This document shows positions 1-10,082 of a DNA stretch of 10,082 bases, one piece after another. This stretch comes from a virus (taxonomy: Duplodnaviria > Heunggongvirae > Uroviricota > Caudoviricetes). The stretch covers positions 1 through 10,082 of IMG/VR virus record IMGVR_UViG_2917855067_000003; one strand, written 5' to 3'. The translations under genes were made by a program, and so were the position numbers. Numbering within the stretch: the stretch's first letter is position 1; the number at the start of each line of letters is the position of its first letter. Under the pieces are notes generated by a model that was not told the DNA's origin, did not search any database, and saw nothing but the letters and a program-made list of their open reading frames with translations.

Positions 1-1095
1 TTATGTTGCTACGGGTTCGTCGCATTTCGGTAGCCAGTCGCCGTAGCTTTCCTCTTTCAGCGACAGATTGGTTTGTATCCCCTGCTTAGTGTGCCGCTTC
101 TCATAATTCAGGCCGTACTCTTTCAGCATCATGGGCAGCCCCAGCCCGAACATTTTCAGGCTGAGTACGTTCCTGTACCCGTTAGCCTCCATATAGGCCA
201 GATACGCGTGATAGAGATATTTACGATAATTACGCGGGATGATGCTGGCATTCCCCATAAACATCCCGTTGGTCTGCGGGAGCATTTCCAGATAGCCGCA
301 AAAATCAAACGTAGGGTCAGCATCGCGCTTGATGCTGAGCGCCTCGTCGGAATTCTGCTGTGACTGGAGCAGTGCGCGGGCTGCCATCGGGTCGCTGAAC
401 TTCTGCATGAGCTGGCGCACAATCACGGCCAGCTCGCGCGCAATTTTATCCCTGAGCTGCGGGTCGCGTTCCTCCGGCGCAATTTGCTCCGGGAAGTGAA
501 TAATCACCCGGCGACGTGACACACCACCGCTGCGGTCGGTGAAGCGCATGGGGTTATTGTTCACTGCCAGAATCACCGCCGGAATGTGTGTTGAGTACGG
601 GTTCTGGTATTTCGGGTCAACCGAGACCGCATCGCCGCCGGTGATGGCCTTAAGCCCTGCGCCGTCACCGCTCCATTTTTCCTGGTCAGGCAGACGGATA
701 AGCGAGAAGCCAATCAGGGAGGCACGCTTGCGCGGGTCTTCCAGCGTGTCGATGTCGGCTGACGTGGCGTTATCTTCCCCGGCAAGCAATGTCGCGATTT
801 CAGCCAGAATACTTTTGCCACTCCCGCCGGGACCGGTCACTTCGAGAAAGAGCTGCCAGTCGTAACGGTTCGCCAGCACCATAAACAGCGCGGCCAGAAT
901 CACGTCGCGTTTTTGTGGATTTTTACCGGCTGCACGGTCGAGCCAGCGCCAGAAGTTCGGCGCGTGCGTCCCCAGCCGTTTCCCCTTCCACCGGCGGGGT
1001 AAAATCCACATCGCACAGCGTGCGCAGCCAGTGCGATTTGTGGTGCGGGCTGAATACGCCGCTTTGGGTATCGAGTACCCCGTTGCGAAAGCCAA
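1..1095 (-). CDS. alpha: P4 alpha-type primase/helicase, C-terminal segment (SF3/D5-like helicase and origin-binding part); homologous part is about 4..975, stop codon at 1..3
   Basis: ORF-track translation contains Walker A GPGGSGKS and the long C-terminal region typical of P4 alpha. It lies in a different frame from 923..2335 and overlaps it. The ATG at 1095 is an ORF-caller start, not necessarily a biological one. Confidence 0.8.
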   Translation of the reverse strand: MAFATGYSIPKAAYSARTTNRTGCARCAMWILPRRWKGKRLGTHAPNFWRWLDRAAGKNPQKRDVILAALFMVLANRYDWQLFLEVTGPGGSGKSILAEIATLLAGEDNATSADIDTLEDPRKRASLIGFSLIRLPDQEKWSGDGAGLKAITGGDAVSVDPKYQNPYSTHIPAVILAVNNNPMRFTDRSGGVSRRRVIIHFPEQIAPEERDPQLRDKIARELAVIVRQLMQKFSDPMAARALLQSQQNSDEALSIKRDADPTFDFCGYLEMLPQTNGMFMGNASIIPRNYRKYLYHAYLAYMEANGYRNVLSLKMFGLGLPMMLKEYGLNYEKRHTKQGIQTNLSLKEESYGDWLPKCDEPVAT

Positions 1096-2335
1096 TCAGA
1101 CGGCGCGCCGGTGTATCCTGCTGCGGAATAATCAGTTTCAGGGTCTCCACAACTGAGGCGATTTTCCCCGACGAGAACGGGGCGCGCAGACGCTGGAATA
1201 AGTCAGCCACATTCCGTGAAAAAGTGGCGACAGGGATATTTTTCCAGATGCCGTTTTCATAGCGGGACAGGAGCTGGCCGTTCGCATCCACTGCCAGCGC
1301 TTCGCCGTAATGCTCATGCACCCGCAAAGCCTTGTCGCTGGCGCTCATGGCGGTAAATTCCGCCTCGCTCATGGTATCAAACGGACTTTGCGCCGGTGGC
1401 CGGATGGCGTCATAAATCGCTTTGCGTGTGGCTTCCTCGCCGTACTGTATAAACGCATCATTCCAGTCACCGAATACCGGCGGCAGGGCAACAACGCCCT
1501 CACAGGCGTCTGCGGCCGCAGCGGCTTTACTCTGGCCGTCGCCGTTAAGGTCACGGTCGGCAGCGAGCACAATCTGACAGGCCGGGGACTTCTGACGGGC
1601 AAGGCTCGCCAGAGAAAGGAGGTTCACGGAGGACAGTGCTACCATGACGGTTTCCCCGGTCAGGTGATGCACGGTGAGTGCAGTCGCATACCCCTCTGCA
1701 ATCCACAGGCGTTTTCCGGCCTGTTTTTTCCCTTCGATGGTATGGCATGCTCCTTTTACCGCCCCGCCTTTCAGGGTGCGTTTGAGACCGTCAGAATTGA
1801 TAAGCTGAAGGTTAACCAGTGCGCCGGTATCGTCATACAGCGGGACAACCACATCACCGGCGCGGAACGTCACGCCGCCGGTTTTGTGTGTGGCCGACAG
1901 TACCGGACATTCCCGGTCGGGGAAACCCTTTCGGGTCAGGTAGGCGTTGCCGCTGGCCGGTCGGGTTTTCTCCATGAGCCTGACGGCCAGTGCGGCCGCC
2001 GCTTTGCGGTCAGCCTCCGTTTCAGCCTCTGCGGCCGCAATCACTTCCGGGGCAACCGGCGGCAGATTGCCGGTCACGGCGTTCACCTTCCCGGCGGCCT
2101 CTGAGGGAGTCACGCCAAACACTTTTTCTACCAGCTTAAGCCCGTCACCCGCGCCGCATTGATTGCAGAACCACGTCCCGCGCCCTTCTTTATCGTCAAA
2201 GCGGAAACGGTCAGAGCCGCCGCATACCGGGCAGGACTGATGGCGGTTTTTAATTACTTTCACACCCAGCGCAGGGAGAATGCGCGGCCAGTGGCCGCAC
2301 GCCTGTTTTACCGTTTCTGTTACGTTCATTTTCAT
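923..2335 (-). CDS. alpha: P4 alpha-type primase/helicase, N-terminal segment (zinc ribbon and primase domain); ends prematurely at 923 unless a frameshift is corrected
   Basis: Translation from MKMNVTETVKQ contains the zinc-ribbon motif CPVCGGSDRFRFDDKEGRGTWFCNQCG. The ATG at 2335..2333 is preferred over 2386 because AGGGAGA lies 9 nt upstream. The frame stops at 923 while the homology continues in another frame. Confidence 0.8.
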   Translation of the reverse strand: MKMNVTETVKQACGHWPRILPALGVKVIKNRHQSCPVCGGSDRFRFDDKEGRGTWFCNQCGAGDGLKLVEKVFGVTPSEAAGKVNAVTGNLPPVAPEVIAAAEAETEADRKAAAALAVRLMEKTRPASGNAYLTRKGFPDRECPVLSATHKTGGVTFRAGDVVVPLYDDTGALVNLQLINSDGLKRTLKGGAVKGACHTIEGKKQAGKRLWIAEGYATALTVHHLTGETVMVALSSVNLLSLASLARQKSPACQIVLAADRDLNGDGQSKAAAAADACEGVVALPPVFGDWNDAFIQYGEEATRKAIYDAIRPPAQSPFDTMSEAEFTAMSASDKALRVHEHYGEALAVDANGQLLSRYENGIWKNIPVATFSRNVADLFQRLRAPFSSGKIASVVETLKLIIPQQDTPARRLIGFRNGVLDTQSGVFSPHHKSHWLRTLCDVDFTPPVEGETAGDARAELLALARPCSR

Positions 2336-2349
2336 CGTTGTTTTCTCCC

Positions 2350-2670
2350 TCAGTGCAGTACCGGTGCGGTGATATGACGGGCGCAAAGCTCATCCATCAC
2401 GGCCAGCCCGAGAAAGGACAGCGACGGGGCAGCTTTCAGTGGTCCGACTTCCATTAAATCTTCCAGCAGGGCACAGGCAATCTGACGGCCTTTTTCCTCG
2501 CCGTGCTGGCGCAGGTAGAAGCCCTCCAGCTCGGCGGCAATGGCGCTTTCCAGCGCGTCGAGGGTGAGGTGCGGGTAGCGGTGCTGGCGTTCGCACAGGG
2601 TCAGCCATGCACAGGCCACTGCGCGACGATACAGCGCGGCGCGTAATACGGGCGGTAATGGCTTTTTCAT
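2350..2670 (-). CDS. hypothetical protein (106 aa), P4-like leftward operon, immediately upstream of alpha
   Basis: ORF with SD GGGGAGGG upstream of the ATG at 2670. Its start overlaps the stop of the preceding ORF (ATGA), and it ends 14 nt before the alpha start. Function not recognised. Confidence 0.6.
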
Positions 2671-2894
2671 ACGTTACCCTCCCCGGTAAGCCACTGCTGA
2701 TTGCAGCGTTCGACCACGCCGTCGAGCTGGGCGGTCATGAGGTAAATCACGGAGGTGAGCTGTAACTGCTGCGTCGGGTCACGACGAACGGTGGCGCAGT
2801 CCTGCACCTGCATCAGGTTGCCGACGAGCTGGCCGACGTTGCGCATATGCTCCAGACATTCGAGGTCACGGGCGGTAATGGTGGTGTGTCTCAT
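2667..2894 (-). CDS. hypothetical protein (75 aa), P4-like leftward operon
   Basis: ORF with SD GGAGGTG upstream. ATGA overlaps at both ends indicate translational coupling. Function not recognised. Confidence 0.55.
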
Positions 2895-3085
2895 GCGCGC
2901 ACCTCCGCAACCGGCAGACGGCCAGCGAACGAGAGGACGTAATCGCGAATGAGGGAAAGGCGTGCGGCGTGCTCATCACCGGCAACGGTGCGGAGCATAC
3001 AAATACGGGGGGTACGGTCTGCGCGACGAACAGCGGCAAACACAAAGACAAACTGCGGGTGTGACGGGGTGAGGGTCGTAGCCAT
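2891..3085 (-). CDS. hypothetical small protein (64 aa), first gene after the putative leader terminator
   Basis: ATG at 3085 is preceded by a near-consensus SD (AGGAGG, about 9 nt spacing). The same frame stays open up to 3442, but that extension crosses a terminator hairpin and lacks an SD, so the short form is preferred. Confidence 0.5.
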
Positions 3086-3288
3086 AAGGGCAACCTCCTG
3101 TGAATAGCGGTTATTGCCACCACCGGAGTTCCTACGCTCATGGGTGGTGACCCGAACGGGGGTAGGAATACCGGCTTCACAGAATACCGGCCAGCCCGAA
3201 AGCTGCCCCGCCCGGACCACCATTATCTGACAGGGGCTATGGAATAAGCACCACAGCCCGAAAAATGGGTGTGCCTGAGCAACGACGT

Positions 3289-3311
3289 AAAAAAAGACGC
3301 ATGGCGCGTCT
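3289..3311 (-). terminator. rho-independent terminator for leftward transcription (P4 timm-like position)
   Basis: On the minus strand: stem AGACGC / GCGTCT (plus 3295-3300 and 3306-3311), 5-nt loop, followed by a run of 7 U (plus-strand A-run at 3289-3295). Confidence 0.5.
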
Positions 3312-3367
3312 GTTGTCGCCTGTGAATTACACGGGTTCCTACGCCCGGCTGCCGATTTTGCGGCAGC
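3289..3367 (-). ncRNA. candidate small structured RNA (position analogous to the P4 CI / C4-type immunity RNA)
   Basis: About 350 nt lacks a convincing coding region between alpA/vis and the next SD-bearing ORF. The minus-strand transcript would start with a 7-bp hairpin (plus 3348-3354 / 3361-3367), contain further imperfect stems, and end at the terminator. A possible -10 (TATAGT, plus 3374-3379) lies just upstream. No homology check was possible. Confidence 0.25.
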
Positions 3368-3438
3368 GGGAAAACTATACCTGGAAACGGCGAAAAGAAG
3401 CAAGCCAGAAAAAGGGGCTGTTTGCTGAACGGTCATCA

Positions 3439-3705
3439 TCATGCGTCATAGCCCCGGTTACGTTCGGCAATGCGATCCGCCATCCATGCAGTGATTTCAG
3501 ACTGCGCCCACGCCACATTTTTTCCGCCGAGGGAGATTTGTTTCGGGAAGGCTTCCCGGCTGATGAGGTCGTAAATGGTCGAGCGGGACAGGCCGCACAG
3601 ATGCATCACTTCGGGCAGACGGATAAAGCGCTCGTGAACGGTATCAGAAACCGGCATCAGCGGCGCGGCAGGGGCAGAAGACGGGGAAGAAAAAGCAGTG
3701 TGCAT
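3439..3705 (-). CDS. alpA: AlpA/Vis-family helix-turn-helix regulator (88 aa), matching the size of P4 Vis
   Basis: Translation contains the AlpA-family signature ([47 protein letters not shown]). SD GAGG lies upstream of the ATG at 3705. Confidence 0.85.
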
Positions 3706-3766
3706 CGGGCTACCTCACAAAGTCCATACAGTGCCGGTCGTGTCCGTCCGGCTTCGGGTAGCTCCT

Positions 3767-3795
3767 TATTATGTCTATATTTTTCCTCAGGTCAT
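3767..3795 (-). promoter_or_regulatory. candidate sigma70-type promoter for the leftward alpA/vis operon
   Basis: Minus strand reads ATGACC, a 16-17 nt spacer, then CATAAT/ATAATA, about 55-60 nt upstream of the alpA ATG. The -35 is weak. Confidence 0.25.
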
Positions 3796-3834
3796 GTGAG
3801 ATTTTCGGGGAAACAAACATTGACTTTTCGCTCT

Positions 3835-3871
3835 GGCAAACAAAGGCAAACGCTGGCAAACATATGCAAAT
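3835..3871. promoter_or_regulatory. four direct repeats at exact 10-bp phasing (GGCAAAC x3 and TGCAAAT); candidate regulator binding array
   Basis: GGCAAAC at 3835-3841, 3845-3851 and 3855-3861; TGCAAAT at 3865-3871. They sit in the divergent control region between alpA/vis and sid. Confidence 0.4.
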
Positions 3872-3873
3872 CA

Positions 3874-3889
3874 CTGCATTACAATGCAG
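3874..3889. promoter_or_regulatory. perfect palindrome CTGCATT-AC-AATGCAG; candidate operator
   Basis: 7-bp inverted arms with a 2-bp spacer, directly after the phased repeats and before an AT-rich stretch. Confidence 0.4.
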
Positions 3890-3971
3890 CAATTTCTATT
3901 TCTTTTAGTTATATATTTTTCATTTTTAATCAAAATAAAGTCTAAATGCTATAACCAGAGCAAAACAGGAG

Positions 3972-4105
3972 GGTGAACAGTGGTGAACAGACGGTGAACA
4001 GTCAGACCCTCAACTATTCACCCTTTAACTTACTGTATTAATTATCTTTTTATTTAAGGTGAACAGTGGTGAATAGTTATAAGTAAAAAAATAAACGGTG
4101 AGTAA
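3972..4105. repeat. iteron array GGTGAACA(G), the reverse complement of the P4 type I iteron TGTTCACC; ori/crr-like alpha binding region
   Basis: GGTGAACAG at 3972-3980, 3982-3990, 3993-4001 and 4058-4066; GGTGAATAG at 4068-4076; inverted copy CTATTCACC at 4013-4021; degenerate GGTGAGTAA at 4097-4105. Spacing is 10-11 bp within clusters, and an AT-rich stretch (about 3890-3960) lies alongside. Confidence 0.7.
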
Positions 4106-4152
4106 GGTTTTCCTGCGACCTTTCTCTGGCCAGCCGGTTTTTAAGGTCTGTT

Positions 4153-4170
4153 TGTGCCAGCATTCTGACA
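4153..4170 (+). promoter_or_regulatory. Ogr/Delta box (TGT-N12-ACA) of a Psid-like late promoter
   Basis: TGT at 4153-4155 and ACA at 4168-4170 are separated by 12 nt. The dyad centre is about 80 nt upstream of the sid ATG, consistent with a -55 activator site and a short leader. A weak -10-like CAGAAT lies near 4205-4210. Confidence 0.45.
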
Positions 4171-4242
4171 ACGGCAATGAATCGTGTTGTTGTGCAGGAG
4201 GCGTCAGAATCATTTCAGGTTGAACACACGGAGAACCTGAAC

Positions 4243-4986
4243 ATGAAACCCGAACTCATTATCAAAGCCATGCAGACCGTTATCAGTAAACAGGATGAAG
4301 GCGCGGAACAACGCATTGCCGGTGCGCTGGCCGCACTTAACGAAGCAAAAGATGCACACACGGCCAGCATGGGTAAACTCAGCGACATTGAGGCTTCCAT
4401 TCAGCGTTGTGAGCAGGAACGACAGACCGCCCTCAGTGAAAGTGCACAGGCCGAACAGGACTGGCGCAGCCGCCTTCGAACTCTGCGCGGCAACCTCACT
4501 CCTGAACTGAAAGCTGAACACAGTAAACGTATCGCCAGCCGCGAACTGGCTGATGAGTTCACCGGTCTGATTACCGAGCTGGAGAAAGACAAAAGTCTCG
4601 CCATGCTTGGCGCATGCTCCTCCGGTACGGCTTATATCAGCGCCCATGAAAAAGCATTCACCACTTACGCCAACAGCGAATGGAAGAAGGTGCTGGCCGG
4701 TATCAGCCCCGCACTGTTACGTGCCTTCCTGTTGCGTATACGGTCGCTGGAAATGAGCGGAGAAACCTCATCGCGTGCGACCGCGACACGTGAGCTGGGT
4801 GATGCCCTGAATCTGCAGTCAGCCCTGTATCATTTTGATATGGAGCAGGAGCCGGTCCTGTCCGTAACGGGCATGAATCGCCCGGTCATAACCGGGGTTG
4901 ATATGGCGCTGTTAAGAAGCCCGGCCAGACGGATGAAGCTTGCCGCTGAACTGGCTGCAAAATCCCACGAACAGGCAGAGGGCTGA
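4243..4986 (+). CDS. sid: Sid-like capsid size determination (external scaffold) protein, 247 aa
   Basis: Assigned by position as first gene of the sid-delta-psu operon, by its charged, helix-rich composition, and by a length near P4 Sid (about 244 aa as I recall). Start at 4243 has SD GGAG 9 nt upstream; the ORF-track start at 4177 would lie inside the promoter. Confidence 0.6.
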   Translation: MKPELIIKAMQTVISKQDEGAEQRIAGALAALNEAKDAHTASMGKLSDIEASIQRCEQERQTALSESAQAEQDWRSRLRTLRGNLTPELKAEHSKRIASRELADEFTGLITELEKDKSLAMLGACSSGTAYISAHEKAFTTYANSEWKKVLAGISPALLRAFLLRIRSLEMSGETSSRATATRELGDALNLQSALYHFDMEQEPVLSVTGMNRPVITGVDMALLRSPARRMKLAAELAAKSHEQAEG

Positions 4987-4989
4987 ATT

Positions 4990-5229
4990 ATGTTTCACTG
5001 TCCGTTCTGCAAAAAGACCGCGCACGTCCGTACCAGCCGTTATCTGTCGGAAAACGTCAAACAGCGTTATCACCAGTGTACCAATATCGAATGTTCGGCC
5101 ACTTTCCGCACCATCGAGTCGGTTGACGGTGTGATACGTGCCGCACCGGAGAAACCTGACCCCACCCCGGTGACGCCGCTGCCGCCGCGTAAAGAACAGG
5201 GCTGCTACAGCTCGCCGTTCCGGCATTAA
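4990..5229 (+). CDS. delta: Ogr/Delta-family zinc-finger late-gene transcription activator (single-domain, 79 aa)
   Basis: Translation MFHCPFCKKTAHVRTSRY...YHQCTNIECSATF has the Ogr/Delta Cys4 arrangement (C4, C7, C30, C35). It starts 4 nt after the sid stop, with SD GAGGG upstream. Confidence 0.85.
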   Translation: MFHCPFCKKTAHVRTSRYLSENVKQRYHQCTNIECSATFRTIESVDGVIRAAPEKPDPTPVTPLPPRKEQGCYSSPFRH

Positions 5230-5244
5230 TCAGGAGAGAGACAC

Positions 5245-5811
5245 GTGACCACTATGACAATACAGCAGGCCTTTGAGGCCTGTCAGGCAAACAAAAACAC
5301 CTGGCTGACACGTAAAGCCGAACTGGCTGACCTTGAACTTGAATACCGTGAACAGCTCCTTGCTGGTGACGAACAAATCCCGCGCAAAATGCAGGATTTG
5401 CGCGACAATATCGACGTGAAAAAATGGGAGATTAATCAGGCCGCCGGTCGCTATATCCGCTCACATGAGGAGGTGCAGCACATCAGCATCCGCAACCGGC
5501 TCTATGACTTTATGCAGCAGCACGGCGCGGAGCTGGCCGCCACGCTGGCGCCTGAATTGATGGGGTATAATGAACAGCTTCCCGTAGTAAAACAGAGCGC
5601 CATGCAGCATTCGGTTGATTATCTGCGTGAAGCCCTGTCAGTGTGGCTGGCCGCAGGTGACAAAATTAATTATTCCGCGCAGGACAGCGACATTTTAACG
5701 GCCATCGGATTCAGGCCTGATGCGGCTTCGCGGGATGATAATCGAGAGAAATTCACCCCGGCACAGAACCTGATTTACACCCGCCGACGTGCAGAACTGG
5801 TCGCACGGTAG
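5245..5811 (+). CDS. psu: Psu (polarity suppression protein; Rho inhibitor / capsid decoration), 188 aa
   Basis: Translation (..IQQAFEACQANKNTWL.., ..NQAAGRYIRSHEEVQHISIRNRL.., ..KINYSAQDSDILTAIGFRPDA..) closely resembles P4 Psu as I recall it. A GTG start at 5245 sits 8 nt after SD GGAGAGAG; the alternative ATG at 5254 is too far from the SD. Confidence 0.9.
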   Translation: MTTMTIQQAFEACQANKNTWLTRKAELADLELEYREQLLAGDEQIPRKMQDLRDNIDVKKWEINQAAGRYIRSHEEVQHISIRNRLYDFMQQHGAELAATLAPELMGYNEQLPVVKQSAMQHSVDYLREALSVWLAAGDKINYSAQDSDILTAIGFRPDAASRDDNREKFTPAQNLIYTRRRAELVAR

Positions 5812-5857
5812 CACGCGAAAAAATCCCCGAAAATTCCGCTATTTTTCCTGAAAAAAG

Positions 5858-5884
5858 CCATGCATCCATAAGGTGCATGGTTTT
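5858..5884 (+). terminator. candidate rho-independent terminator of the sid-delta-psu operon
   Basis: Stem CCATGCATCC / GGTGCATGG (one wobble, 4-nt loop) followed by TTTT at 5881-5884, about 47 nt after the psu stop. Confidence 0.45.
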
Positions 5885-5984
5885 GCATGCAAATCCCCGT
5901 ATTTTATTTCCCCCACCACGCCAGTACCGGCGCGGCCTGAGCCGGTTCATGCACCTGCATTAAAAGTGACCTCTTAAGCGGGCA

Positions 5985-6003
5985 GGCGTGGCGGGGAGAG
6001 CAT
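5985..6003. other. cos-like site (resembles the 19-nt P2/P4 cohesive end)
   Basis: GGCGTGGCGGGGAGAGCAT matches GGCGAGGCGGGGAAAGCAC at 16 of 19 positions. That P2/P4 sequence is recalled from memory and not verified. The site is downstream of psu, where P4 has cos. Confidence 0.4.
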
Positions 6004-6269
6004 TGCGCGCTGGAATAATAATTAATTATTTATTTTCTCGCTCTGTGTTTGTCATTGATGAGTGGCAATTCGTTGACATGCTGGAGAGATATAATGCTGT
6101 TTAAAAGGAAAGAAGCACTTCTGAGGCTTTTAGGTTAGAGGGGAAGTTAAGGCCGCCTTGAGGCGGCGAAAATTAGTCATTTTGGGTATCGAGGAGTAAT
6201 ATTAGGCTGAATGCCACATGCTCCTGAATTAGAACCTTGAGTGCGAGTTGCTACATAAATAAATGGAGC

Positions 6270-6950
6270 TTAAAAATGATTAATCAAGATTTGATTTTTT
6301 TTAATTGCTCGTCTACTCCAGTGCTCTGTGATGTTTTGAGTGAAGTCGGGACGAACTATTTTTGCTCTAAAGTCCACTGCTTCAAGAGATTCTACTCTCA
6401 AATATATTCCTTCTGATATTTCATCGCTGAATTTTGATTTTTTTATATAAGAAGATAACTTGTTTAGTTCAAAGAAACCTTCGTCAAGAAAAGGAACGCA
6501 ATGAAGGTTTGCATTTGATATTATTTCGTTTCTTTGAGGAAGTGGTAAAAATATTTTTCTTTTCTTATCGAATACATCAAATGCTAAAAAATAGTCAGGT
6601 AAGCGGGTGTAGTGAATAGAATGTTTCGCATAACACCATTCCCCAAATATAATGTATTGGTCTCGAATGTAGTCAAAAAGGTTGTCGCGGTTGTAATTTA
6701 ACCAGTCAGGAAGCATTTTCCATTGGCCATTAAAAGGTTGATGTAAAAAAGAACCCCTATTTTGAAGGAGTAAGTCTGCATTACCATTAAAGGAAATGCC
6801 TAGATTAGCTCCGTCAATTTTCTCTTCTATTATGGTTTTTTTAGTTGAAAGCAATAATCGTTCTTTATCTGAAATGACCTTGTCATCCCTGACGTTAGGA
6901 TGGTAAAAAATATGTGGAGTGGACGGGAATTTATATAGTTCATCTTCCAT
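6270..6950 (-). CDS. Rnl2-type RNA-ligase-like nucleotidyltransferase (standalone adenylyltransferase domain, about 226 aa)
   Basis: Translation carries ligase motifs in the right order and spacing: motif I EEKIDGAN (KxDG), motif III FGEW, motif IIIa FDVFD, motif IV EGIYLR, motif V RAKIVR. ATG at 6950 has SD AGGAAG 9 nt upstream; the ORF-track GTG at 6977 has no SD. It is AT-rich and overlaps the upstream gene by 11 nt. Confidence 0.7.
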   Translation of the reverse strand: MEDELYKFPSTPHIFYHPNVRDDKVISDKERLLLSTKKTIIEEKIDGANLGISFNGNADLLLQNRGSFLHQPFNGQWKMLPDWLNYNRDNLFDYIRDQYIIFGEWCYAKHSIHYTRLPDYFLAFDVFDKKRKIFLPLPQRNEIISNANLHCVPFLDEGFFELNKLSSYIKKSKFSDEISEGIYLRVESLEAVDFRAKIVRPDFTQNITEHWSRRAIKKNQILINHF

Positions 6951-7479
6951 TTGGAAACTTCCTATTATATGTATCACTTATGAGTTTTTCGTCAGCAAAA
7001 TGAACCGTTATGCCTACATCAGCAAGAGATTCTTTCCAGCCCCACCATTTACTATCAGTTGCTTGAAAAATAGGCGGTTTGTCTACGTGTGCGTATGACG
7101 TGGCTACAAATTTTCTATCCGATAAATCAAAGTTTGTCAGGCCTTCATGTACAGGGAACTCCTCATAGCTAGTTTCGGTTTTTGTAATTCTTACGATGTT
7201 TTTATCAGGGAATTTCCATTGGTTAGTGTAAATCCATTTCATAAATTTATCACCAACGCCAGGGGCTCCACTCATGCTTAAATTTGAGCGATACTCTTCA
7301 ACTATTTCTTGTGCTTCATCAATAACTAACCCACCATTTGCAATTGCCTTTTCTATTATTTCAACACACTCTAAAACACAGCTTAGAATATCATCTGGAA
7401 TGTTTTTTATATCTGTGTGCATATTAGCTGTAACAGCAACATTTGTATCAATTAAAAAAGCAGCAGGTAATTTATTCAT
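6940..7479 (-). CDS. PIN-like domain protein (putative nuclease), 179 aa
   Basis: N-terminal AAFLIDTNVAV resembles the first PIN strand with its conserved Asp; further acidic positions (DEAQE, ATDSKW, ISDTY) fit the PIN pattern. SD GAAGG upstream; start overlaps the ATPase stop (ATGA). The domain call is by eye. Confidence 0.6.
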   Translation of the reverse strand: MNKLPAAFLIDTNVAVTANMHTDIKNIPDDILSCVLECVEIIEKAIANGGLVIDEAQEIVEEYRSNLSMSGAPGVGDKFMKWIYTNQWKFPDKNIVRITKTETSYEEFPVHEGLTNFDLSDRKFVATSYAHVDKPPIFQATDSKWWGWKESLADVGITVHFADEKLISDTYNRKFPNGR

Positions 7480-8861
7480 TTAGATGTACCTTCTTTTTCT
7501 TTTATTCTTCTTTTTAACGCTGATTTTGCTTGCTCTGTAATGTCTGTTAATTCATCACCAAAGAAATTATCTGGCCAGTTGAGGATATTTCCAAATGTAT
7601 CGATTTGCAACGGTGTTAATTTTGGGGTTGAAGATGAAATGTCAGAGAAGTACGCGGAAACTTCCTCGGATTTTATTTTGTCTTCTGCTATTCTCCTTTG
7701 CAGTCTGCGAAGGAAATGCTCTGAGTGAGTTTCTATAATTAGCTGTATGCCTCTTGATTTTCCATTTTCTCGTGAACGGATAACATCGATCATAACATCA
7801 GCAAGCACTGATTGTGCTTTTGGGTGTAAATGAATTTCGGGTTGTTCCATCAAAATTATTGAGCCTGGTTGAGCGTAAAAGCATTGTACTAGAACTGGAA
7901 GAACCTGAGAAACCCCAAACCCAACATCTGGAAGGTCTACCCACTGTTTAGAGCCTTTAGTTTTAACTTTGACTTCATATTCTTGACGATGTTCTGAAAT
8001 TGCTTTTACAGAAAAACTATCAATTAAGTCCATTTGTTTTAATTTTTCAGCGATGATTTCTTCTAATGGTTTATTTTTCTTTTTATAATCAAGGCCGATT
8101 CTTCTTTCTTTTGATGAAAGAATGGCGGAAATTGCATTTTCACCTGCATAACCTACGCTTTCTGGTGAAATTCCAGTCCATGGATATAATCGTTCAGGCT
8201 TATTTCTCATTGGCCCTAAGTAACATACTGAACGGAATAGCTTTTCATGCATTAGATTGATGTCTTGCACAAAATCAGCATTTTGATGGTAAGCTACGAC
8301 TTCCTCAGGGAAACCATAAAATCTAACTACATCTTTTATCGCCCAAACCCTACCCTTCTGTCGAGTTAGAGTGAAATTGTTAGTTTTGATTTTATAATTT
8401 GACTTAGCGTCACGAACAAGTCCTATAGATACATCATCTTTTTCTTTCTGATAGAATGTATATGAGAATCCATTGACATATAAGCTATTATTCTCAGCAT
8501 TAAAAGATATCTCAGATTTAAAATGGCATATTTTCGATAAGGATATAATGCTGTCTAATGATGATTTAGAGTATAATTCATCTATTGACCAAGAGTACTC
8601 AAATGAGATGTTCTTGTTAACGTCTCTCATGTTAACCATGTCTTGAAATGAGCCCAATTGTACTGCTGAGTTTTTACCTCCTGGGTAGAATGGGGTTTTT
8701 CTATCAGATGATTCAACCGTTTGTTTAAGCATCATGAGAAGCTGGCCAATACTAGATTTACCAGAGCTATTTGTTCCAAAGAAAAGAGTGATAGGTGACA
8801 TTTTGATTTCACCTGTATCAGTCCAAACCTTAAAATTTTCTACTTTTAATGTTTTAAACAT
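7476..8861 (-). CDS. ABC-type ATPase (AAA_15/AAA_21, OLD/RecF-like), 461 aa
   Basis: Walker A GTNSSGKSS near the N-terminus, Walker B region ILMEQPEIHLHP and H-loop ETHSEHF near the C-terminus, with a long insertion between, as in defence-associated ABC ATPases. SD AAGGA upstream; ATG is only 3 nt after the int stop. Confidence 0.85.
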   Translation of the reverse strand: MFKTLKVENFKVWTDTGEIKMSPITLFFGTNSSGKSSIGQLLMMLKQTVESSDRKTPFYPGGKNSAVQLGSFQDMVNMRDVNKNISFEYSWSIDELYSKSSLDSIISLSKICHFKSEISFNAENNSLYVNGFSYTFYQKEKDDVSIGLVRDAKSNYKIKTNNFTLTRQKGRVWAIKDVVRFYGFPEEVVAYHQNADFVQDINLMHEKLFRSVCYLGPMRNKPERLYPWTGISPESVGYAGENAISAILSSKERRIGLDYKKKNKPLEEIIAEKLKQMDLIDSFSVKAISEHRQEYEVKVKTKGSKQWVDLPDVGFGVSQVLPVLVQCFYAQPGSIILMEQPEIHLHPKAQSVLADVMIDVIRSRENGKSRGIQLIIETHSEHFLRRLQRRIAEDKIKSEEVSAYFSDISSSTPKLTPLQIDTFGNILNWPDNFFGDELTDITEQAKSALKRRIKEKEGTSK

Positions 8862-8864
8862 TTC

Positions 8865-10082
8865 TTATCCTTTGCTTTTAGATTTTATGATGGAAGCATT
8901 TTGGATTTCATCACCCCACCAAGCTAATAAATCACTACGTTGTTTTAAATAATTTGCACGGTTATATGCTCTTCTGACTTCATTTTTATCTGTATGTGCC
9001 AAAGATGATTCAATTATATCAGCGTTGAAACCAGCTTCATTCATAGTTGTACTCGCGATAGAACGTAATCCATGTGCGACTAATTTACCACCATAACCTA
9101 TTCGCTTCAAAGCGGCATTAGCCGTCTGGCTATTCATAGGTTGCTGTGGATCATTTCTACTTGGAAAAATATATTCTCTATGTGCACTGATTGGCCTCAT
9201 TACTTCCAGAATCTCTAATGCTTGAGTAGAAAGAGGTACGATGTGTTCCCGTTTTGCCTTCATCCGTTCGGCTGGGATCGTCCAGAGTTTGGCATTGAGA
9301 TCGATCTCTGCCCATCGTGTACCTGAAGCCTCAGAAGGTCGCACGAGAGTCAGAAGCTGCCATTCAATAAGACAGCGAGTCGAAACAGACAGATTCGACA
9401 TCACCAAAGAGCGCATTAGCTTCGGCAATTCTTCCGGCCGAAGGGTCGGCATGTTTTGCTTTTTTGGTTTCTCAAATGCCATTCCGACACCTGATGCCGG
9501 GTTTGCATCAATCAGGCCAGTGTTGACGGCGTAGATCATGATTTCGTTAATACGTTGTACCAGGCGGCGAACCGTCTCTAATGCGCCACGTGCTTTGATT
9601 GGCTCCAATGCTTCAACTATCGTTCTGGCCTTAATTTCCTGAACAGGTATTGCGCCTATTGCGGGGAACACGTCCTTATCTAAAGAGCGCCATATATCTT
9701 TCGCGTAGTCTTCAGTGACGCTTTTGCTCTTCATTTTGAACCAGTTGGCGGCCACAGTTGAGAAAATGCTATCCAGCTCAATCTGACGCTGTTCTGATGC
9801 CTGCTCTTGTTGCTGTTGCGGATCCATACCCTGCGCGAGTGTGGTTAAGTGCTGGTCGCGTATCTGACGAGCTGCTGCGAGAGTAAGGGCAGGGTATGAG
9901 CCGAGACTCAAATTAGTTCGGCTGCCACTGACCGGACGTTGATAGCGGAAGCGCCAGAGTTTTTTACCGGTGGTTTTGACGAGCAAGAACAGGCCGTCAC
10001 CATCATGAAGGGTGAAGTCTTTTTCCCGAGGTTTGGCTTTAAGGATTTCGTTGTTAGTGAGGGGGCGTGTGAGGCGCGCCAT
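8865..10082 (-). CDS. int: P4-type tyrosine integrase (405 aa)
   Basis: N-terminus MARLTRPLTNNEILKAKPREKDFTLHDGDGLFLLVKTTGKKLWRFRYQ is the P4-integrase arm-binding domain; C-terminus has HGLRSIAST and RRAYNRANY (catalytic Tyr). The start codon is the last 3 nt of the window. Confidence 0.95.
   Translation of the reverse strand: MARLTRPLTNNEILKAKPREKDFTLHDGDGLFLLVKTTGKKLWRFRYQRPVSGSRTNLSLGSYPALTLAAARQIRDQHLTTLAQGMDPQQQQEQASEQRQIELDSIFSTVAANWFKMKSKSVTEDYAKDIWRSLDKDVFPAIGAIPVQEIKARTIVEALEPIKARGALETVRRLVQRINEIMIYAVNTGLIDANPASGVGMAFEKPKKQNMPTLRPEELPKLMRSLVMSNLSVSTRCLIEWQLLTLVRPSEASGTRWAEIDLNAKLWTIPAERMKAKREHIVPLSTQALEILEVMRPISAHREYIFPSRNDPQQPMNSQTANAALKRIGYGGKLVAHGLRSIASTTMNEAGFNADIIESSLAHTDKNEVRRAYNRANYLKQRSDLLAWWGDEIQNASIIKSKSKG

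Follow-up and report, generated by a model that had tools for sequence, protein, structure and literature searches.

What does an RNA ligase do in an anti-phage operon whose effector is probably a ribonuclease? This question is raised by a 10,082-nucleotide (nt) stretch of DNA from a tailed virus (IMG/VR record IMGVR_UViG_2917855067_000003, positions 1 to 10,082; hereafter, the window), in which a P4-like phage satellite carries three overlapping genes (hereafter, the triad) for an ABC-type ATPase, a putative VapC-like PIN-domain nuclease and a small protein of the RNA ligase family. In conflicts between phages and their hosts, RNA ligases are mostly familiar as weapons by which a phage reverses the cleavage of host tRNA. 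Here, an intact ligase is a conserved and integral part of the nuclease-based defense module of the host or its satellite. The ATPase-PIN pair is already known as the defense system HEC-03, and what is new is the widespread, unannotated ligase as the third component of an HEC-03-like module.

The window encodes a minimal RNA ligase

The ligase gene is located at positions 6270-6950, as the original prediction had it, on the minus strand, which had not been named. An in-frame GTG at 6977 would lengthen the open reading frame (ORF, 6270-6977) from 226 to 235 amino acids (aa). The ATG start is backed by alignments, in which the homologues start 4-6 residues before a conserved KFPSTPH segment, and a Shine-Dalgarno-like AGGAAG is found 9 nt 5' of it. 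All five nucleotidyltransferase (NTase) motifs quoted earlier for this ORF were found in it, that is, KIDG (motif I, residues 44-47), FGEW (III, 102-105), FDVFD (IIIa, 124-128), EGIYLR (IV, 180-185) and RAKIVR (V, 195-200). The order of motifs III, IIIa, IV and V is canonical, and the protein further has a QNRG (R65) that resembles motif Ia. The candidate for the adenylylated lysine is K44, with its codon at window positions 6819-6821.

Profile alignment to the RNA_ligase models, proposed in the original prediction as a check, gave a match to PF09414 with an E-value of 2.1e-30 and 106.6 bits (cut-off 27) that covered all 171 model positions. The motif set and this match are far above chance. 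The database search returned 2,029 clusters of ligase homologues, nearly all of them 220-240 aa in length. Across an alignment of 120 homologues, K44, D46, G47, G103, E104, W105, D125, E180, G181, R195 and K197 were invariant, as were positions specific to this family in two segments, KFPSTPH/RxDK (N-terminal) and FxQ...HW (C-terminal). Enzymes of this superfamily form a ligase-(lysyl)-AMP and then join 3'-OH to 5'-PO4 ends.

The absence of the C-terminal domain of Rnl2, also claimed earlier, was borne out, as the protein stops only 26 residues past motif V and its AlphaFold2 model is a single domain with the nucleotidyltransferase fold. This model was built with the 120-sequence alignment; the single-sequence version was unusable (predicted local distance difference test score of 35.7). 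Judged by its sequence, the protein belongs to the ATP-dependent RNA ligase superfamily and consists of the NTase domain without an accessory domain, with a predicted intact active site. At about 226 aa, it is an RNA ligase of naturally minimal size, with substrate recognition probably provided in trans, which makes it of interest for ligase enzymology and tool development.

By sequence comparison, the ligase is approximately equidistant from Rnl2, Rnl3 and Rnl5 and a strict member of none of them. T4 Rnl2 and its isolated adenylyltransferase domain (PDB 1s68, 2hvq) share about 16% identity with it, and the Rnl2 family (T4 Rnl2, kinetoplastid REL1) has a C-terminal helical domain for nick recognition and RNA adenylylation that is missing here. 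The label "Rnl2-like" given earlier therefore holds for the PF09414 NTase domain with its full motif set and not for the Rnl2 family in the strict sense, whose defining C-terminal domain is absent. In addition, T4 Rnl2 is a phage enzyme, whereas the window ligase is a component of a host/satellite defense operon. The nearest solved structures by sequence profile were Rnl3-type enzymes (E-value about 1e-5), with the NTase core alone aligning. The Rnl3 enzymes (Pab1020, MthRnl and the P. pacificus ligase) are ~380 aa in length and have N-terminal, dimerization and C-terminal domains that the window ligase lacks, and the Rnl3 model TIGR01209 scored 20.1 bits against it, with a cut-off of 136.9. 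The Rnl5 enzymes (Naegleria gruberi NgrRnl, Deinococcus DraRnl) have an N-terminal OB-like domain, which is likewise absent.

The ligase is the third gene of an ATPase-PIN-ligase operon

The ligase had been described as standalone, which does not hold: its gene is the terminal, overlapping member of an ATPase-PIN-ligase operon that is conserved across phyla, and these partners had been overlooked. The accompanying guess that a minimal domain of this kind leans on partner proteins is in keeping with the operon, and the other suggestion made there, that the protein may serve purely as an adenylyltransferase, names a possible role. In the window, neighboring genes share 4 nt at the ATPase-PIN junction and 11 nt at the PIN-ligase junction, in each case between the stop of the upstream gene and the start of the next.

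The ATPase matched AAA_15 (2.3e-29), AAA_21 (1e-19) and DUF3696 (5.6e-8) in Pfam, and its translation shows the Walker A motif GTNSSGKS plus MEQPEIHLHP and ETHSEH motifs. Among the PADLOC models, it matched HEC-03B (PDLC04148) over the full length at 1.3e-124, NsnB at 1.6e-64 and AriA at 1e-29, the PIN protein matched HEC-03A (PDLC04147) at 2e-25, and the ligase matched no model. The names are swapped between the two sources, with HEC-03A being the PIN protein and HEC-03B the ATPase in PADLOC, and the reverse in the preprint on HEC-03.

The window PIN protein had no direct Pfam or PDB sequence match, and searches of the PIN-family profile against PDB chains and Pfam gave nothing significant. 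A short-PIN relative (P0334) matched Pfam PIN_3 at 2e-5, just below the threshold. As the direct profile searches were null, the PIN assignment is based on the homology to HEC-03, this near-threshold match and the conserved acidic residues. The latter, D11 (in the DTNV strand), E62, D118/D121 and D142, were kept in 98-100% of 74 sequences, which argues for an active nuclease.

The triad is conserved across phyla and located in defense regions

The linkage of the three genes was surveyed at 80 ligase-bearing loci, with one genome per species, and the ORFs were searched by iterative hidden Markov models. A PIN-like gene was located directly upstream of the ligase in 74 of the 80 loci and the ATPase was found in 75, with constant strand and order. 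More than 10 bacterial phyla and a single archaeon are represented among the triads. They were found in Gamma-, Alpha- and Deltaproteobacteria, Firmicutes, Verrucomicrobia, Planctomycetes and Chlorobi, and further in Nitrospira, Lentisphaerae, Latescibacteria, Cloacimonadota and one genome of the candidate phyla radiation. The archaeon is Methanolobus psychrotolerans (L015, 4060-6684), with an intact triad whose ligase is 50% identical to that of the window; the presence of the triad in a methanogenic archaeon implies inter-domain transfer.

In 41 of the 59 triads whose starts could be assigned cleanly, the PIN stop and the ligase start overlapped by 4 nt. The matrices of pairwise distances were correlated among the three proteins (r = 0.75-0.89, Mantel p = 0.001), and the mean pairwise identity was 56% for the ligase and 55% for the PIN protein. 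The shared order, the overlaps and the correlated divergence indicate that the three genes moved and evolved as one unit. The copies nearest to the window were from Klebsiella pneumoniae (92%), Scandinavium and Serratia (53%), and those of Klebsiella and Serratia have the same P4 context adjoining smpB, with the same genes, order and strand. In a Lachnospiraceae copy (48% identical), gene content, order and strand are likewise unchanged, although the chromosomal context is unrelated. The cassette was not found in 5,426 complete Escherichia coli genomes.

The module occupies recognized defense locations, namely the P4 hotspot, type 3 BREX and a plasmid island of Abi and toxin-antitoxin genes. 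Type 3 BREX systems house the triad in about 16-17 of the 80 genomes, with the PglXI methyltransferase on one side and the BrxHI helicase/PglZ on the other. The BREX-embedded triads (for example L014, 1271-12191) have a Fic/SoFic-like gene upstream, and they repeat the embedding pattern through which HEC-03 was discovered in Hma. On a pAsa9-like conjugative plasmid of Aeromonas salmonicida (L102, NZ_CP085535.1, 27133-35810), the triad, with a ligase 39% identical to that of the window, has as island neighbors an AbiEii toxin, Hok/Gef, a metallophosphoesterase and the GASH protein of a GTPase-associated system. The RefSeq names of this plasmid triad give no hint of defense.

Orphan ligases were found at 4 of the 80 loci (L023, L038, L071 and L076). 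Two decayed modules were also observed, both with an intact ligase ORF. In one of them (L088, 4271-6735), the ATPase is cut to 212 aa beside an insertion sequence/transposase-like ORF and the PIN gene is gone; in the other (L027, 5723-6699), the ATPase is present as a fragment only. A fusion of the ligase with a Fic-like_C domain (P0065) appeared to be a read-through into an adjacent Fic gene fragment and was discarded as uninformative.

Distant relatives of the ligase (27-34% identity, most with >85% query coverage) were found in jumbo and Flavobacterium phages (records H16-H27; L103, 2785-3687), including Xanthomonas phage XacN1, Agrobacterium phage Atu_ph07 and Caulobacter phage CcrSC. They sit among unannotated genes and are possibly RNA-repair or counter-defense enzymes of the same lineage.

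The ligase-bearing triad appears to be the commoner form of the HEC-03 family

HEC-03, short for Hma-embedded candidate 3, is a gene pair described by Payne et al. that was found embedded in Hma and cut the plaquing of several phages in E. coli; both genes are needed, the system is toxic when induced, and the small protein was considered a VapC-like PIN by its authors based on structure comparison (bioRxiv 10.1101/2024.01.29.577857). When compared with HEC-03 from Pseudomonas cichorii, the window ATPase is 37% identical, of the same length (461 aa in both) and has the DUF3696 tail, and the PIN protein is 29% identical (E-value 5e-20) with the same acidic residues. The two modules also agree in gene order and in having overlapping genes, and each was seen embedded in larger defense systems. 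However, HEC-03 was defined and tested as two genes without a ligase, whereas the window module has a third gene, and the PIN protein of the window branch is longer (about 177-179 vs 157-165 aa) with a DSKWWGW tail. The window module thus has the two sequence hallmarks of HEC-03, the ATPase and the adjacent PIN, but not its two-gene composition. From this homology, we assign it to the validated anti-phage family HEC-03, and the triad of the window is predicted to protect against phages.

The HEC-03 homologues with a short PIN (157-165 aa) formed 669 clusters, and the long-PIN family 2,458. The ligase family and the long-PIN family are thus approximately three times as large as the short-PIN family, suggesting that the ligase-bearing triad is the commoner form. 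No ligase was detected within 4-6 kb in five of six sampled short-PIN loci, and the HEC-03 reference locus is among those without one. The locus L097 (3655-6163) encodes a short 157-aa HEC-03-type PIN followed by a divergent 230-aa PF09414 ligase, which is 26% identical to that of the window and has the signature motifs in common with it. The two-gene HEC-03 defends, and the ligase is therefore not required for basic defense in at least one lineage. This family was defined and validated as a two-gene system and is listed as such in defense databases, but its larger part appears to be the ligase-bearing form; whichever role of the ligase holds, the third gene is currently missed by defense-annotation tools.

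Relationship to other defense and RNA repair systems

The window ATPase is also similar to NsnB of Menshen (NsnABC). In AlphaFold3 models of Menshen, two NsnB DUF3696 helices clamp the PIN-fold domain of the effector, and PARIS and Septu have the same arrangement of an ATPase dimer plus effector (PMC12065111). By analogy, the window ATPase likely holds its PIN protein with the same DUF3696 clamp. The PIN of NsnC is an inactive adaptor, whereas that of the window keeps its catalytic residues, and membership in Menshen was rejected as no NsnA (ParB/DUF262)- or NsnC-like gene was found in the cargo. The match to AriA of PARIS (AriAB) is weak relative to that to HEC-03, and PARIS was rejected as no AriB DUF4435 Toprim protein is present. 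Neither Menshen nor PARIS has a ligase, unlike the window module. The module is not a VapBC system either, with a 461-aa ATPase and not a small VapB antitoxin encoded upstream of the PIN, and HEC-03 was likewise set apart from VapBC by its authors (bioRxiv 10.1101/2024.01.29.577857).

A nuclease and a ligase that share an RNA are also seen with T4 Pnkp and Rnl1 acting on PrrC-cut tRNA-Lys, with bacterial Pnkp/Hen1 and with RtcAB. In the case of T4, the two enzymes come from opposite sides of the conflict, whereas in the window they are co-encoded and translationally coupled, with no end-healing enzyme. Matelska et al. 2017, citing Burroughs and Aravind 2016, mention predicted conflict operons of PIN_3, an RNA ligase and an ATPase, with or without HNH, in which the ligase was proposed to neutralize the linked PIN/HNH nucleases (PMC5499597). 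An independent linkage of PIN_5 and Rnl3 occurs in archaea (PMC5499597). No description of an ATPase-PIN-ligase defense triad was found in the literature searched, where Burroughs and Aravind 2016 was represented only via Matelska et al.; a related arrangement may have been noted by Burroughs and Aravind 2016.

The ligase may reseal RNA cut by the PIN nuclease

We tentatively favor a role of the ligase in resealing the RNA cut by the PIN nuclease, which would limit self-toxicity or enable recovery; this reading draws on analogy, and we hold it with somewhat less than even confidence. An ATPase oligomer would hold the PIN via the DUF3696 helices, in analogy to NsnB-NsnC of Menshen and AriA-AriB of PARIS. 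Once a phage cue is sensed, the ATPase would free or activate the PIN, which would cut an essential RNA (tRNA or rRNA, like VapC toxins) and stop translation. The ligase would then use ATP to form Lys44-AMP and reseal the PIN-made breaks. As it has no substrate-binding domain of its own, the PIN/ATPase complex would be expected to present the broken RNA to it. The ligase could thus be a built-in antidote or reset that erases the damage from leaky or spurious activation and lets cells recover after an aborted infection.

An antidote would be dispensable for phage killing, which is consistent with defense by the ligase-less HEC-03 branch. The chemistry has a parallel in P2 OLD, an ATPase-coupled metal-dependent nuclease that leaves 5'-P/3'-OH tRNA nicks; T4 Rnl1 or Rnl2 close these nicks seamlessly, and no end healing is needed (PMC12445682). 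Further precedents are the proposed neutralization of linked PIN/HNH nucleases by a ligase and the archaeal PIN_5-Rnl3 linkage (PMC5499597). Should the ligase reseal the cuts of the effector, the module would be a defense with built-in damage reversal, in which cells could arrest growth reversibly rather than die and could put up with a dangerous effector.

Several points weigh against resealing. The isolated NTase domain of T4 Rnl2 reportedly performs ligation steps 1 and 3 but not RNA adenylylation, so a bare NTase domain may not suffice for complete ligation. Joining of 5'-OH ends by an ATP-dependent ligase requires a kinase/phosphatase, and there is none in the cassette. Other PIN nucleases leave 5'-P/3'-OH ends. 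For the VapC family, one group reports 5'-OH ends on the cleavage products (PMC6459853), which contradicts the assumption that VapC-type PINs always leave 5'-P/3'-OH ends. A ligase that undoes the damage of the effector would help the phage too, unless it is regulated. The locus L097, with a short PIN and a ligase, indicates that the presence of the ligase is not strictly tied to PIN length. Moreover, we infer the substrate and partners of the ligase, as well as its specificity for RNA or DNA.

Alternative roles of the ligase

Unlikely, but deserving attention, is that the ligase acts together with the PIN as an effector, with the PIN cutting once or twice and the ligase joining the wrong ends, circularizing fragments or leaving 5'-adenylylated ends. 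A repairable nick would thereby become a lesion without free ends that neither spare tRNAs nor the RNA-repair enzymes of a phage could fix. In favor of this role, the ligase shows the same degree of conservation as the PIN, with invariant catalytic residues, and the ligase-bearing form is in the majority. An NTase-only domain may also stall after adenylylation, given what is said of the Rnl2 domain. In vitro, T4 Rnl1/Rnl2 acting on tRNA doubly cut by P2 OLD gave a shortened tRNA (28 joined to 41) and a circular 12-mer (PMC12445682), indicating that ligation can fix damage in place; if the ligase does so here, it would represent a new effector chemistry. On the other hand, the ligase-less HEC-03 still defends, so the basic effect needs no ligase, double cutting by the window PIN is unsupported, and such a role is wholly speculative for this ligase family.

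We consider it doubtful that phage sensing leads the PIN to excise a stem-loop or a few nucleotides of a tRNA or rRNA, with the ligase closing the gap. The product would be a shortened, continuous and non-functional RNA without free ends, which could not be restored by phage Pnkp/Rnl. Enzymatic RNA deletion would then be an immune effector, and the retention of the ligase in most members would be explained.

An action on DNA, with the PIN as a FEN-like or structure-specific DNase and the ligase sealing nicks in host, satellite or phage-intermediate DNA, also seems improbable. PIN-like folds include DNases, PF09414 relatives are often annotated as DNA ligase, and the triad is embedded in the DNA-targeting BREX, but the window ligase is without the OB domain normally needed by ATP-dependent DNA ligases, and the HEC-03 authors liken the PIN to VapC ribonucleases (bioRxiv 10.1101/2024.01.29.577857).

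We give even less credence to a function in sensing or signaling, in which, for example, a protein, a nucleotide or the end of a phage nucleic acid would be adenylylated by the ligase, and the product would activate or restrain the ATPase-PIN pair. An NTase-only architecture without a nucleic-acid-binding module, the tight translational coupling to the partner genes and the extra invariant motifs (KFPSTPH, RxDK and FxQ...HW) are in line with such a function. Against it, the full ligase motif set is kept, including III, IIIa, IV and V, no precedent is known in this superfamily, and the two-gene relatives sense phage without a ligase.

It is very improbable that the ligase is an unrelated or housekeeping RNA-repair gene beside a two-gene defense system, as the orphan copies in 4 of the 80 genomes and the distant NTase-only relatives standing alone in phage genomes could suggest, given the linkage in about 74 of 80 species across phyla, the 4-nt overlaps at the gene junctions, the correlated divergence of the three proteins and their presence as one low-GC cargo block in the window.

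The triad is the sole cargo of the psu-int hotspot of a P4-like satellite

The gene content of the window identifies it as a P4-like phage satellite. It encodes the primase/helicase alpha and DUF5375, Ash and AlpA homologues, with the families assigned via a near-identical Klebsiella locus, and also bears sid-like, delta and psu genes. The Rfam matches above the gathering score (Table 1) confirm a P4-type immunity region. Similarity to E. coli P4-like elements ends at about 6014 on the psu side and returns at about 8910 inside int, indicating that the triad is the sole cargo of the psu-int hotspot, with a cos-like site and psu flanking it on one side and int on the other. The psu-int interval is a defense hotspot of P4 (PMC9122126). 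No RNA gene was found inside the cargo segment by Rfam and tRNA scans.

Table 1 Coordinates of the triad and of other features in the window.
Feature	Position	Strand	Details
RNA-ligase-family gene (third of operon)	6270..6950	minus	ATG start, 226 aa, NTase domain only
VapC-like PIN-domain nuclease (putative), second gene	6940..7479	minus	179 aa, presumed effector
ABC-type ATPase (AAA_15/AAA_21) with C-terminal DUF3696 helix, first gene	7476..8861	minus	461 aa, presumed sensor/regulator
Low-GC cargo segment	6004..8910	no strand	33-40% GC vs 53-62% in the satellite backbone; three genes only
cos-like 19-mer GGCGTGGCGGGGAGAGCAT	5985-6003	plus	matched in 0 of 200 shuffles; psu-side cargo edge, in agreement with descriptions of P4 hotspots; 3 mismatches to the P2/P4 cos 19-mer
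Candidate sigma-70-like promoter ATGAAA-18-TAAAAT	8882..8911	minus	weak match, consensus 9/12; lies in the 3' part of int, shortly before the ATPase start
C4 antisense RNA	3140-3227	minus	Rfam, 78 bits
isrK	3290-3367	minus	Rfam, 77.5 bits
c4-a1b1 target	3328-3380	minus	Rfam, 49.6 bits

The int stop is 3 nt ahead of the ATPase start, and the operon may be transcribed by read-through from int instead of from its own promoter. The promoter and terminator scans gave nothing above the shuffled expectation, and as promoter-like sites were no more frequent than in the shuffles, the promoter listed in Table 1 is a candidate only. In the AT-rich spacer 3' of the ligase stop, a GC-rich hairpin (GCCGCC-TTGA-GGCGGC) is located at 6152-6167; there is no T-run beside it on either strand and the terminator scan did not pick it up.

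The P4 alpha primase/helicase gene (1-2386, minus strand) is broken into overlapping ORFs of 487 and 364 aa, with the break near 923-1095. These ORFs align to residues 1-453 and 450-777 of an intact 777-aa Klebsiella homologue, indicating a frameshift, and thus either a replication-defective satellite or a sequencing error.

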